Below are positions 3,307 to 11,406 of a stretch of DNA of 11,406 bases, one piece after another. The translations under genes and the position numbers were made by a program. The first letter of the stretch is position 1; each line of letters begins with the position of its first letter. Source of the DNA: Cyanobacteriota bacterium (GTDB lineage Bacteria; Cyanobacteriota; Cyanobacteriia; Cyanobacteriales; Nostocaceae); assembly GCA_046045965.1 (NCBI GenBank), contig JBJOKS010000064.1:1-11406 (forward strand), read 5' to 3'. The notes under the pieces are model-generated. The model had not been told where the DNA came from and made no database searches. It was given only the letters and a program-made list of their open reading frames with translations.

Positions 3307-4644
3307 ATGCACATTCAAAAAGTGATAATTAAAAATTTTCGATGCTTTAATAATTTGGAAGTTAATTTAGATCCTGATATTAATATTTTTGTTGGCAATA
3401 ATGGCTCTGGTAAAAGTGCTTTGTTAGATGCTTTGGCTGCGGCAATGTATCCTTATGTGGCTGAGATTCAAAGAATTGTAGATAATGAACAAGAAGTATC
3501 TCCTGTTGTACAAAAAGATTTACCAGTTAAGCAAGATGATACTGAACAAAGGAATCATCCAGAATTCACTGTATTAACTACTGATTTACCAGATTGGAGG
3601 TTTGTTTATAAAAATCCTCCTAAAAATAATAATAGTTCTTTGAAAAAACCGAAAAAACAAACACGAGAAGCATTACAACAAGGAACTCAAAATCTTAATT
3701 TTGATTTATTAAATAAATTTGATCCATTTGATCCATTCCAGCGTCAAAAAACATCTGAAATTCCTGTTATAGCTTATTATCAAGGGAATCGTAACTTAAA
3801 TAATATTCCCGATATTGAAAATATTTCTGATCAATCATTCGATAGATTTGATTCATTTAAAAATGCTTTTCATGCAACAGCTAATTTTACGGATGTAGCT
3901 ACATGGTTTTTTGTACGTGAGTATGAAGAATTAAGACAAGGAAAAAATCGCCGAGATATTAATTTTGAACTTCCCGATTTAAAGCAAATACGCAAAGCTA
4001 TTTCTACTATTATCTCTCCCAATGCTCGCGTTTATTTTTCCGGAGCGACATCAGCAAAATTAATGGTTGAATGGGAAATGGAAACAGGAGAAAAACGAGA
4101 ACTTTTCCTAAGTCAACTAAGTGCGGGTTATCGCAATATGTTAGCCTTAGTGATGGACTTTGCACGGCGTTTAGCACAAGCAAACCCAGACATGGAAAAC
4201 CCGTTAGCAGCAGAAGCAATTTTGATGATTGATGAGTTAGATTTGCATTTACATCCAACTTGGCAACAAAGAATTATTCCTGATTTAAAAAAGGTATTTC
4301 CTAATACTCAAATTATTGCCACTACTCACAGTCCTGAAGTTGTGACAACCGTGAAACAAAATCAGGTGTGGATATTAGAAGATTATCAAATAAAACCATG
4401 TCCTGAACCTACCAAGGGGAGGAAAAGTTCAGATATTGTGAGAAATGTTTTAGGGTTGAGTGAATTAAGACCAGATACAGAAGAATCAAAAACATTAACA
4501 AAGTTGTTTGAAGCCATTGATAATGGTCAATTAGAAGAAGCAAAACGCCTCAAAAAAGAATTACAAGATTGGGAATCTTTTGATCCAGATATGACTAGAG
4601 CAGATATGCAAATCCGTCGATTAGAACGGAGGAATGCAGTGTGA
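3307..4644 (+). CDS. ABC/AAA_21-type ATPase, PtuA-like (Septu / retron type I-A effector ATPase)
   Basis: N-terminal IKNFRCF, Walker A GNNGSGKS, signature LSAGY, Walker B/D-loop ILMIDELDLHLHPTWQ, H-loop IATTHSP. SD-like AGGTG at 3292-3296. Its stop overlaps the HNH gene start. Confidence 0.88.
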   Translation: MHIQKVIIKNFRCFNNLEVNLDPDINIFVGNNGSGKSALLDALAAAMYPYVAEIQRIVDNEQEVSPVVQKDLPVKQDDTEQRNHPEFTVLTTDLPDWRFVYKNPPKNNNSSLKKPKKQTREALQQGTQNLNFDLLNKFDPFDPFQRQKTSEIPVIAYYQGNRNLNNIPDIENISDQSFDRFDSFKNAFHATANFTDVATWFFVREYEELRQGKNRRDINFELPDLKQIRKAISTIISPNARVYFSGATSAKLMVEWEMETGEKRELFLSQLSAGYRNMLALVMDFARRLAQANPDMENPLAAEAILMIDELDLHLHPTWQQRIIPDLKKVFPNTQIIATTHSPEVVTTVKQNQVWILEDYQIKPCPEPTKGRKSSDIVRNVLGLSELRPDTEESKTLTKLFEAIDNGQLEEAKRLKKELQDWESFDPDMTRADMQIRRLERRNAV

Positions 4645-5378
4645 AAAATGTGCGTAAATCCCCAGAACCAGAGGAACTTAAAAATTACAAGAAGCGATAT
4701 TCTTCTCAATTTAAACGATATGCGGATTTAAAAAAGAATAGAGCTTTTGAGAAAGTTCGTGATACTTTAATTTCTGATCAAAAAGGACTGTGTGCTTATT
4801 GTGAAATGGAAATACATGAAAAAAATCGTTCTGTTGATCACTTTATTCCTCGTAAACAATCAACAAAAGAAAATAATCATGATTTAGATTGGCAAAATAT
4901 GTTAGGTATTTGTTGTCCTCCAGGTGGAGTAGAAGATGAGCATGAGAAAAATTCAAAATTACTCAAGTATTCCCTTTGTTGTGGACAGAAGAAAGGTGGT
5001 GTTAATGATAGTAAATTATTAAATCCTCTGAATTTACCCATACCAAGGTTATTCAAATTCAGTAGTGAAGATGGTGAAATCAGACCTGATGAAATTGCTT
5101 GTTTAAAGTCTGGTATTCCTGTTGAAAATGTCGAGTTTACTATTGAGCAGCTTGGGTTAAATGTTCCCAGATTGAAAGAGCAAAGATGGGTAGTAATTGA
5201 TGAGATAAATAAAGAACTTGATGATGAGACTATTGATATCAATGATTTAGAAGAAAAATTAGCAGCAGAACATTTTGGTGATGGTACAAAAAACTGGCCT
5301 CCATTTTTTACAACTATGCGCTGGGTTTTGGGTGTAGGTGCAGAAAAACACCTAAACAATATTTCCTATTCTGGTTGA
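4641..5378 (+). CDS. HNH endonuclease, PtuB-like (TIGR02646 / retron-system putative HNH type)
   Basis: DQKGLCAYCE (CxxC), SVDHFIPR, LDWQNMLGIC, CGQKKG, LLNP and TIEQLGLNVPRL motifs. GTGA start/stop overlap with the ATPase gene indicates translational coupling. Confidence 0.88.
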   Translation: MKNVRKSPEPEELKNYKKRYSSQFKRYADLKKNRAFEKVRDTLISDQKGLCAYCEMEIHEKNRSVDHFIPRKQSTKENNHDLDWQNMLGICCPPGGVEDEHEKNSKLLKYSLCCGQKKGGVNDSKLLNPLNLPIPRLFKFSSEDGEIRPDEIACLKSGIPVENVEFTIEQLGLNVPRLKEQRWVVIDEINKELDDETIDINDLEEKLAAEHFGDGTKNWPPFFTTMRWVLGVGAEKHLNNISYSG

Positions 5379-8883: not shown

Positions 8884-9630
8884 ATGGTTGTTTGGCGATG
8901 CTTTATTGCCTGTGGATTTATCGGTTTTATGACAGTTGGCTGTGGTGATTTAGGAATATTATCATCAACAGAATATACTAAGAAGGTTGTGCAGGAAAAT
9001 AATGTTGCTCAACTGATAGCAGAAGTACAAGATAGCCAGAAAGCAGAAAACCTATTAAATCAAGGTAACAGTTTTTTAGATACCAATCGCTACAAAGAGG
9101 CTTTGGCTTTATATAATCAAGCGGTGGCGATTAAAAAAGACAGTGTAGAAACATGGGTAAACCGGGGAAATGCTTTATTAGCTTTGCATCGTTTTGAGGA
9201 AGCTTTGGCATCTTACGATAAAGCGATCGCAATTCGCCCCAATAAAAATGAAGCTTGGTATAATCGAGGAAATGCTTTATCAGCTTTACGTCGTTACGAG
9301 GAAGCAGTAAAATCCTACGATGAAGCGATCACTATTGATTCAGAAAAATATGAAGCCTGGATAAATAGAGGAATTGCGCTGACCAAATTGCGACGGTACA
9401 AAGAAGCTTTGGCATCTTACAACCAAGCAATTACAATTCAGCCTAATTCCCATCAGGCCTATTACAACAAAGCTTGTAATTATGCCTTGCAAAACCATCT
9501 AGAACCAGCAATTGAGAACCTGGAAAAAGCAATACAAATTCTTCCTGACAAATACAAGACATTAGCTCAAACTGACACAGATTTTGATAAAATAAGGCAG
9601 GCAAAGCAATTTAATAAATTATTACAATAG
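8884..9630 (+). CDS. Tetratricopeptide-repeat protein, probable lipoprotein
   Basis: About five 34-aa TPRs (W.NRG.AL..L.RYEEA..SY..AI). The ATG at 8884 follows an SD-like AGGTG and gives MVVWRCFIACGFIGFMTVG-C, a signal peptide with a lipobox-like end. The TTG start at 8821 is less likely. Confidence 0.88.
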   Translation: MVVWRCFIACGFIGFMTVGCGDLGILSSTEYTKKVVQENNVAQLIAEVQDSQKAENLLNQGNSFLDTNRYKEALALYNQAVAIKKDSVETWVNRGNALLALHRFEEALASYDKAIAIRPNKNEAWYNRGNALSALRRYEEAVKSYDEAITIDSEKYEAWINRGIALTKLRRYKEALASYNQAITIQPNSHQAYYNKACNYALQNHLEPAIENLEKAIQILPDKYKTLAQTDTDFDKIRQAKQFNKLLQ

Positions 9631-9715: not shown

Positions 9716-10579
9716 ATGAAAAAACTCCTAATTACAGGTGCAAGTGGTTTTTTAGGTTGGCATCTTTGCCAAATAGCAAAGCAAAAATGGGAAGTCTACG
9801 GTACTTATGCTACCCATTTTCTAGAAATACCAGATGTGAAAATCTTGAAAGTTGATTTAACAGATTTTCAGAACTTAAAAAGCTTATTTAATGATATCAA
9901 ACCGGATGCAGTAATTCACACCGCCGCACAATCTCAACCGAATTACTGTCAACTGCATCCCCAGTTATCTTATACTATTAATGTTACCGCTTCTTGTAAC
10001 ATTGCAGGACTTTGTGCAGATAATTCTTTACCCTTAGCTTTTACATCTACCGACTTAGTTTTTGATGGTTTAAAATCACCATATAAAGAAACAGATGAGG
10101 TTTCACCTGTGAATATTTACGGTGAACAAAAAGCGCAAGCAGAAGCAGGTATATTAGAATTATATCCCCAAGCTGCCATTTGTAGAATGCCGTTAATGTT
10201 TGGGAACGAAACACCGACAGCTAAAAGCTTTATTCAGGGATTTATACAAACATTGAAAGACGGAAAAGAACTGAGTTTATTTAGAGATGAATTTCGCACC
10301 CCAGTTAGTGCAAACACAGCCGCAAAAGGTTTATTATTAGCATTAGAGAAAGTTAACGGAATAATTCATTTAGGTGGAAAAGAGAGAATTTCCCGTTATG
10401 ATTTTGGTAAAATTTTAGTGGAAGTAATGCAACTTCCCAGTGATAAATTAAAATCATGTTTGCAAGATGATGTAAAAATGGCAGCACCAAGGCCAAAAGA
10501 TGTTTCTTTAGATAGTGAAAAAGCTTTTAGTTTAGGATATCAACCATTGTCGGTGAGGGAAGAATTAGAGAGTTTGTAA
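9716..10579 (+). CDS. RmlD-like (dTDP-4-dehydrorhamnose reductase family) extended SDR oxidoreductase
   Basis: LLITGASGFLG, PDAVIHTAA, TSTDLVFDG, PVNIYGEQK (YxxxK), DEFRTP and APRP. It is not in an rml cluster, so the substrate is uncertain. Confidence 0.88.
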   Translation: MKKLLITGASGFLGWHLCQIAKQKWEVYGTYATHFLEIPDVKILKVDLTDFQNLKSLFNDIKPDAVIHTAAQSQPNYCQLHPQLSYTINVTASCNIAGLCADNSLPLAFTSTDLVFDGLKSPYKETDEVSPVNIYGEQKAQAEAGILELYPQAAICRMPLMFGNETPTAKSFIQGFIQTLKDGKELSLFRDEFRTPVSANTAAKGLLLALEKVNGIIHLGGKERISRYDFGKILVEVMQLPSDKLKSCLQDDVKMAAPRPKDVSLDSEKAFSLGYQPLSVREELESL

Positions 10580-10582
10580 ATA

Positions 10583-10732
10583 GGGAATTTTTGAGGATTT
10601 TGTCTGAATCAGGATATCCAGGATTAGAGGATTTACAGGATGTTGTTGTTTATTTTAAGTGGGGATTTTGAGGATTTTTTTGTCTGAATCAGGATAACCA
10701 GGATTAAAGGATTTTCAGGATGTTGTTGTTTT
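10583..10732 (+). repeat. Left arm: two tandem ~80-bp units with 42-bp core TTGTCTGAATCAGGATAWCCAGGATTARAGGATTTWCAGGAT
   Basis: Cores at 10600-10641 and 10680-10721 (period 80). The flanks are also duplicated: TTTTGAGGATTT before and GTTGTTGTTT after each core. Confidence 0.95.
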
Positions 10733-10804
10733 ATTGTCTATGAGAAGTACAGATTTTAAGATGTTAGATAATCAATTATCTATTAAATTATCTACTTTAA
10801 TTTT

Positions 10805-10834
10805 TTGACTTTTAGAGTAACTTTATGGTATAAT
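10805..10834 (+). promoter_or_regulatory. Near-consensus sigma70 promoter between the repeat arms, pointing at the GxxExxY gene
   Basis: TTGACT (10805-10810) - 18 nt - TATAAT (10829-10834), with extended -10 TG at 10826-10827. Confidence 0.65.
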
Positions 10835-10854
10835 CTTCAAATATTAACAAACAA

Positions 10855-11042
10855 TTTATCAATCACAATCCTGAAAATCCTAAAATCCTGGACATCCTGA
10901 TTCAGACAATGAAAATTTCAGCATCCCACTAATAACCTACAAATTACAATCCTGAAAATCCTAAAATCCTGGACATCCTGATTCAGACAATGACAATTTC
11001 AACATCCCACCAATAACTTATCAATTACAATCCTGTACATCC
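10855..11042 (-). repeat. Right arm: two plus a partial third tandem 81-bp units carrying the same 42-bp core in inverted orientation
   Basis: ATCCTGAAAATCCTAAAATCCTGGACATCCTGATTCAGACAA, identical at 10868-10909 and 10949-10990. Its reverse complement TTGTCTGAATCAGGATGTCCAGGATTTTAGGATTTTCAGGAT matches the left cores. A partial copy, ATCCTGTACATCC, is at 11030-11042. Confidence 0.95.
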
Positions 11043-11406
11043 ATGAACACACCCAATAATAAAAAATTAGATGAAATCACATATATAATAAATGGGTGTG
11101 CAATGAAAATACACCGAACTTTGGGAAATGGGTTTCAGGAGGTTATTTATCAAAGATGTATGGAAATTGAATTACAAAAATCAGGTTTAGGTTTTGGAAG
11201 AGAGGTAGAACAAGTAATTTATTATGAAGGTATTGAAGTAGGAACACGAAGAGCAGATTTTATAGTTGAAAATCAGGTTGTGGTGGAGTTGAAAGCGATA
11301 ATTAATTTAGAAGATGTCCATTTAGCGCAAGCGAAAAATTATTTGGTTGCTTATAATTTTCCTGTGGGGTTGTTGATTAATTTTGGTGGGTTGAAGTTGG
11401 AATATA
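11043..11406 (+). CDS. GxxExxY protein (PDDEXK_3 / PD-(D/E)XK nuclease superfamily), 3' end truncated by the window
   Basis: Manual translation from ATG 11043: MNTPNNKKLDEITYIINGCAMKIHRTLGNGFQEVIYQRCMEIELQKSGLGFGREVEQVIYYEGIEVGTRRADFIVENQVVVELKAIINLEDVHLAQAKNYLVAYNFPVGLLINFGGLKLEY. It contains GFQEVIY (GxxExxY), RADFIV...VELKA (D...ExK), QxxNY and GLLINFG. The frame is open to the window end; the ORF track does not list it. Confidence 0.93.
   Translation, partial: MNTPNNKKLDEITYIINGCAMKIHRTLGNGFQEVIYQRCMEIELQKSGLGFGREVEQVIYYEGIEVGTRRADFIVENQVVVELKAIINLEDVHLAQAKNYLVAYNFPVGLLINFGGLKLEY

Follow-up and report, generated by a model that had tools for sequence, protein, structure and literature searches.

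The closest described parallels to the locus reported here are Ssn/SRM and RAYT/REPIN. In the former, the gene of a small single-domain GIY-YIG nuclease is flanked by its own repeat (NTS/SRM), which occurs in hundreds of copies; such protein-repeat pairs are found across phyla, cleavage has been shown, and the system has been interpreted as a domesticated element with a role in recombination (Chenal et al., 2025; PMC11893778). For the latter, comparison is made here with passages from Bertels and Rainey (PMC3116915) and from a later preprint (bioRxiv 10.1101/2021.07.10.451892). The GxxExxY protein family is listed in one table row as of 'unknown' function (PMC3424549), and passages from some of the publications naming GxxExxY or its accessions give neither a function nor a repeat. 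Searches of a literature made up mainly of open-access main texts returned no description of a pairing between GxxExxY proteins and the arms described below; the repeat itself may have been described before. Short mobile extragenic repeats without an assigned partner gene were reportedly found in Nostocales by Elhai et al. in 2008.

The window analysed here is the entire contig C64 (11,406 nt) of a 5.29-Mb genome, at the right end of which a gene of the GxxExxY/PDDEXK_3 nuclease family (11043..11406, plus strand) is preceded by copies of a 42-nt arm. An arm is termed R on the strand where an array of ATCCT words leads into a conserved tip, and L on the opposite strand. The sequence-only reading had seen four full copies and one partial copy in two opposed tandem arrays, and all five were confirmed: copies 1 (10600..10641) and 2 (10680..10721) lie on the minus strand in L orientation as an 80-nt tandem unit, copies 3 (10868..10909) and 4 (10949..10990) on the plus strand in R orientation as an 81-nt tandem unit, and a 13-nt partial arm (11030..11042, plus strand) opens a third unit. 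The tip of copy 1 points toward an rmlD-like gene (9716..10579, plus strand), 21 nt past its stop; this is simply the upstream neighbour here, and other genomes have other neighbours. At the other end the repeats run directly into the ORF, as had been claimed, with the partial arm abutting the ATG at 11043 and the last full arm ending 52 nt before it. The opposed arm sets (copies 1-2 versus 3-4) are 90% complementary, and the predicted folding of the arm region has a z of -13 against 100 shuffles. Between the sets lies a 146-nt spacer (10722..10867) that aligns to 15 of 19 other spacers with scores of 95-169 (shuffled maximum 36), and in relatives homologous spacers are present on both sides of the gene. 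It contains a predicted sigma-70-like promoter (10805..10834, plus strand; 11/12 matches, 18-nt spacing, extended -10) directed at the gene, and similar hexamers are also visible in the spacers of relatives. Neither this predicted promoter nor the cassette array discussed below figured in the sequence-only reading.

The window holds 121 of the 131 codons of the gene, which runs past the contig end; contig C69 overlaps by 127 nt and supplies the stop 10 codons further. Directly after that stop, where a search for more copies had been suggested, C69 carries two further arms, giving the order L L spacer R R r gene L L. In the contigs of DNA run X1 the gene has a depth of 82-86, that of a single copy, with its neighbours at about 80-140 and the arms at 60-100 times the depth of the gene; joints listed in the sequencing contigs are explained by other repeat copies. 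The gene has no cover in two RNA contig sets. Just past the downstream arms, at about 300-400 of C69, is an inverted pair of REP-like sequences, which we take to be of the GTAG type. Elsewhere in the window, a Septu-type defence pair consisting of a PtuA ATPase and a PtuB HNH nuclease (3307-5378, plus strand) lies without an adjoining arm, and 102-nt repeats at 9148-9453 are ordinary TPR coding repeats.

The gene and the 42-nt arm form a matched pair that is specific to one clade of the protein. Orthologues without flanking repeats would, according to the sequence-only reading, have counted against it, as would a repeat no commoner beside GxxExxY genes than in random intergenic regions; neither outcome was seen. 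Using an arm matrix trained on copies outside C64 and C69, a threshold above every shuffled locus, and a search within 300 nt of the gene, an arm was found at 84 of 88 loci with at least 65% protein identity and at none of 42 more distant loci. By identity band, arms were present for 15/15 rows at 85% or more (two rows being one locus, and the window's own two rows excluded), 69/73 at 65-85%, 0/13 at 50-65%, and 0/29 below 50%. Distant GxxExxY genes are instead flanked by periodic arms of their own. Two paralogues in this genome (C81:6653-7018 and C19:57916-58269, both on the minus strand) each lie between their own inverted periodic arms, and these two arm types occur 31 and 50 times in the genome; the three paralogues thus have three different arms. 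The C19 paralogue carries two internal stops. Enrichment of repeats near GxxExxY genes was also evident in a motif-free test, from which rows with short or N-containing flanks were dropped: inverted repeats were found at 79 of 119 gene flanks and at 0 of 109 control windows further out, with counts of 12/12, 41/68, 8/13, and 18/26 from the highest to the lowest identity band.

A link between arm type and protein phylogeny was likewise seen in a quick tree of 118 proteins, for which motif labels were defined by the analyst from the flanks and the sample was weighted to close relatives. There a single clade with support 98 has the window's arm motif, in 75 of its 79 rows (the other four are unlabelled), and includes members from Cyanobacteriota, Bacteroidota, Pseudomonadota, Thermodesulfobacteriota, Ignavibacteriota, and Verrucomicrobiota; its two closest sister clades have related motifs (supports 96 and 91), and at least seven arm types change gradually along the tree. 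Over 73 loci, the best arm is 0.83 identical to the Nostocales consensus (best match in shuffled flanks, 0.545), although the four-fold sites of the gene are saturated over the same loci, at an identity of 0.25; the arm has therefore been kept by selection. In three Bacteroidota genomes, every exact tip match (2, 2, and 5) is located at the gene itself.

The ORF matches TIGR04256 at 125.7 bits (cut-off 35) and PF13366 at 125.4 bits (cut-off 22), and profile searches matched only PDDEXK_3/GxxExxY, with no HUH, DDE, or GIY-YIG domain. The two motifs on which the original family assignment relied are intact (G30/E33/Y36 and D72/E82/K84), and 11 columns are invariant across 111 sequences, including E33, D72, E82, K84, Q96, and Y100. 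A QxxxY motif is a mark of RecB/Cas4-type nucleases. From family knowledge, given that E33, D72, E82, K84, and this QxxxY are invariant, we infer that the protein is an active nuclease. Its closest named relatives are from Nostocales (best 99%). A predicted model, that of a 99% identical full-length homologue, has a pLDDT of 93.5, and its top Foldseek match is the Cas4 protein SSO0001 (E 5e-5, TM 0.53-0.56), followed by the lambda and RecE exonucleases; PADLOC gave a weak Cas4b match. The predicted fold is a Cas4/lambda-exonuclease-like PD-(D/E)XK fold. A wide structure search matched many PD-(D/E)XK domains, and since its best VIA Z was only 8.0, near background for the fold, the fold does not fix the activity. 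Solved structures sought by protein sequence included none that was related, and a single-sequence fold prediction (pLDDT 41) was discarded. The gene is under purifying selection: simple estimates for nine pairs gave a dN/dS of 0.01-0.24. Homologues of greater length are rare, and in these the domain is fused to one of many unrelated neighbours. A GxxExxY gene was found in none of 50,697 phages and in 7 of 72,556 plasmids, every one below 60% identity.

By analogy with Ssn and RAYT, we lean, if only somewhat, toward a partnership of nuclease and repeat, in which an active protein would read the word array and cut near the tip while host recombination copies arms and swaps cassettes. The small Cas4-like nuclease would recognise its own arm, perhaps as single-stranded DNA or an extruded hairpin, and nick the DNA beside it. 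Host repair or recombination would then copy arms to new gene ends, so that the repeat spreads, and cassettes lying between arms would be exchanged by host recombination. It counts against such a partnership that the gain and loss of cassettes between direct repeats can be explained by plain host recombination, and that the genes facing arm tips genome-wide show no excess of small genes (34/104 versus 31%). The same holds for several results given below: repeats persist where the gene is absent, the correlation of gene and repeat is weak in Pontibacter, two carriers have few copies, and neither target-site duplications (48 of 49 units) nor clean arm-only empty sites were seen.

How closely repeat number follows the gene varies among genomes. 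In the 131 genomes of the taxonomic family, all 11 with a gene of at least 90% identity (in one case with an early stop) show 91-629 exact matches to the tip; among the other 120, nine have 20 or more tip matches (23-133), and the gene was not found in these nine. Two others of the 120, Nostocales genomes whose gene is 75-78% identical, contain only 1 and 12 copies. Repeat-rich genomes have a median of 142 copies in carriers versus 75 (kin that are not independent), and in genera with both gene states carriers are higher in 4/4. Across the order, 0 of 143 genomes outside the family have more than one tip match. In Pontibacter, the motif is present in 45 of 46 genomes and the gene in 17, with copy medians of 17 with the gene versus 10 (P = 0.026, again among kin that are not independent); this is a weak correlation. 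Because copies persist in gene-less genomes and low-copy carriers exist, the repeats outlast the gene, and carrying the gene is no guarantee of their expansion.

In Nostocales the gene is single-copy, and at 88% identity or more it lies near the 3' end of gcvP in 15 of the 15 genomes in which that side is visible; the neighbour on its upstream side differs between genomes. Differences among the 1.5-kb flanks had pointed to independent hops of the gene, an idea rejected because gcvP was downstream in 15/15 once longer stretches were compared. At five loci the gene is flanked on either side by direct copies of an L-spacer-R unit that carries a predicted promoter, and between units lie small two-gene modules encoding PIN, VapB, FitA, HigB, TumE, and HNH proteins (5 of 18 proteins had no match), with cassettes on both strands. 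These toxin-antitoxin cassettes change in content and order in the array at the arms. Of 17 small-ORF families, each seen at least twice over 18 loci, six are found on either side of the gene, depending on the genome. At gcvP in ten gene-less genomes there were three whole units, three partial units or single arms, two sites with nothing, and two contigs that were too short. In contig C52 (1263-3900; L145), with no GxxExxY gene nearby, three PIN-type two-gene modules are separated by arm-spacer-arm units, of which three homologous ones are present. Comparison with 800 kb of the sister genome G130, in which only 9/33 and 11/125 clusters could be matched, showed HicA-type cassettes between direct arm copies where the other genome has a single arm and no cassette (2 of 20 matched clusters). 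None of these 20 orthologous comparisons gave a clean arm-only empty site. No integrase was seen in ORF maps of the mapped loci, which were read by eye.

This arrangement bears on whether the gene is a mere passenger, captured once per arm type and carried along with the arms, which would serve another, unlinked enzyme or host recombination. In Nostocales, direct units do enclose the gene just as they enclose the cassettes, these arms also accompany other cassettes, and the repeats persist without the gene, yet independent captures would not be expected to produce the gradual shift of at least seven arm types along the protein tree, the confinement of all exact tip matches to the gene in three Bacteroidota genomes, or the conservation of arms despite saturated silent sites. 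We consider this explanation rather unlikely.

In most Bacteroidota the gene instead lies between inverted arms at a stop/start junction, where the tips often overlap the final codons of the upstream gene or contribute the A of the next start codon. At 49 of 73 loci (65-85% identity), the arm farthest upstream is an L and the one farthest downstream an R. Such a layout would suit a minimal autonomous transposon, with the nuclease as transposase, the arms as terminal inverted repeats, and gene-less doublets as MITE-like derivatives moving whole. The single orientation of doublets, the singleton fusions to many neighbours, which suggest insertion at gene ends, and a junction with filled and empty sites agree with this. 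At that junction, between nfi and clpB in 25 Pontibacter genomes, seven sites have the gene behind an L arm, one has an arm only, two have a RAYT-like gene, and 15 have none of these. However, a target-site duplication was found in only 1 of 49 units; the other 48 were at or below the cross-locus maximum, and old insertions may have lost theirs. The spacers of 35 doublets are mostly unrelated to one another and the gene is single-copy and fixed in 15/15 Nostocales, neither of which fits elements moving whole, and no strand-transfer chemistry is known for a 131-residue PD-(D/E)XK domain. A transposon of this kind is unlikely. The sole unit with a flanking direct repeat is L096:1400-1960, where the repeated stretch comprises about 45 nt of the end of the upstream gene. 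The RAYT-like gene (L213:752-1366, minus strand; L214), at 59.7 bits under a cut-off of 80, has flanking palindromes and occupies the nfi 3' junction otherwise used by GxxExxY units. Many Bacteroidota units (L045, L051, L052, L054, L073, L099, L104, and others) are apparently at junctions of restriction-modification operons, as judged by eye, where the upstream gene reads into the arm.

The repeat is not local to the window, as a count of its copies established: 175 arms were found in this genome at 10 or fewer mismatches, while five shuffled 42-mers gave 0, and a weight matrix found 202. Each arm consists of four ATCCT words spaced 9, 8, and 9 nt apart and ends in the conserved tip; words and tip are 91-100% conserved, and the letters between words are variable. 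Where opposite arms neighbour each other within 450 nt, L precedes R in 35 of 35 cases, with the reverse order in none. Single arms make up 65 of 109 clusters, and conservation is not higher in clustered than in single arms (P = 0.12). By a crude gene caller, only 6 of 202 arms lie inside genes. Arms in C25, C28, and C40 of this genome and in L036, L038, L041, L242, and L254 contain an extra element of ~24 nt, inserted close to the tip and at a single position; its core occurs 23 times in this genome, and it may belong to the small dispersed repeats reportedly described by Elhai et al.

A different role for the arms, as transcribed hairpins bound or processed by the protein or as operator arrays for autoregulation, draws on the stable predicted hairpin, on the predicted promoter inside the unit, and on tips that point toward the nearer gene in 141 of 183 cases (50 of 66 for single arms), mostly toward its stop. 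The arms, however, are found on either strand relative to their neighbours, Rfam yielded no RNA family in the arm region (the sole, spurious match scored 24 bits against a cut-off of 195), and paired arms lack covariation (0.49 versus 0.53 expected). They even avoid identity at columns 24-26, where the two arms of a doublet share the triplet in 1 of 33 cases versus 6.5 expected (P about 0.004); in G130, with eight doublets, this mismatch is not significant. Selection against long perfect stems was rejected as its cause, as the longest stem is no shorter than chance (P = 0.36). Paired arms that do not covary are easier to reconcile with DNA sites read by a protein than with an RNA stem, and a role as RNA or regulatory sites is quite improbable; the suggestion that the repeats act as an RNA partner of the nuclease found no support, with neither an Rfam family nor covariation seen. 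That a common cyanobacterial repeat lies by chance beside a mobile nuclease gene is barely credible: for all its abundance here, the arm also accompanies members of the clade in phyla other than Cyanobacteriota, and it is absent from other clades.

If the nuclease-repeat partnership holds, it would be the third enzyme fold, after those of RAYT and Ssn, to be paired with a dispersed bacterial repeat, and it would make available very small nucleases that are sequence-specific and differ naturally in specificity. It would also explain a repeat that ranks among the most abundant in Aphanizomenonaceae genomes, with up to 629 exact matches, as well as a hot spot for the gain, loss, and reordering of toxin-antitoxin cassettes. 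A widespread protein family thereby gains a defined candidate substrate, so its activity is directly testable with swapped protein-arm pairs. More speculatively, and in our view less probably than not, GxxExxY proteins might form a large family of minimal nucleases with site specificity, in which every clade has a periodic arm of its own; the member in bloom-forming Nostocales might run an integrase-free cassette system, in which promoter-carrying arm-spacer-arm units serve as exchange sites that collect and reorder toxin-antitoxin modules and the nuclease gene is itself a cassette.

Integron cassette arrays and CALINs hold toxin-antitoxin cassettes between imperfect palindromes with conserved ends. 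The array at gcvP resembles them in that its cassettes lie between direct copies of a palindromic site and vary in order and content between genomes, but it differs in having no integrase in the ORF maps of mapped loci, cassettes on both strands, a predicted promoter in each unit, and arms that also occur singly genome-wide. The arms share with the small dispersed repeats reportedly found by Elhai et al. that they are short, extragenic, and found in Nostocales. As in Cas4, lambda exonuclease, and RecB, the protein has a PD-(D/E)XK core with E...D...ExK and QxxxY, although it differs in lacking an iron-sulphur cluster region, in being 131 residues long, and in having no CRISPR genes adjacent here. 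The unit differs from insertion sequences and MITEs with terminal inverted repeats in having neither a DDE nor a HUH transposase and a target-site duplication in only 1 of 49 units.

The sequence-only reading had proposed a RAYT/REPIN analogue, and this stands in part. As in RAYT systems, to the extent that the cited passages describe them, the gene in Nostocales is a single copy at a fixed locus (beside gcvP in 15/15) amid many gene-less repeats, which is not so across phyla, and it is nearly absent from plasmids and phages; as with REPINs, there are extragenic inverted doublets with variable spacers and tandem clusters. The analogy fails for the arm itself, which is an array of spaced words, and for the single arms, which outnumber doublets (65 of 109 clusters) and are equally conserved (P = 0.12). 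The protein, moreover, is no HUH/tyrosine transposase, and unlike RAYT its clade crosses six phyla at 68% identity or more. With Ssn/SRM, on the published passages, the locus shares a small nuclease gene flanked by a matching genome-wide repeat, in pairs found across phyla. It differs in having a Cas4-like PD-(D/E)XK domain without a GIY-YIG (cd10448) domain, and in an arm that is a periodic word array pairing only with a second arm, where SRMs are short hairpins; Ssn cleavage has been demonstrated, whereas cleavage by GxxExxY at its arm is predicted. The best reading is that the partnership would work most like Ssn/SRM and RAYT/REPIN, but on a different enzyme fold.
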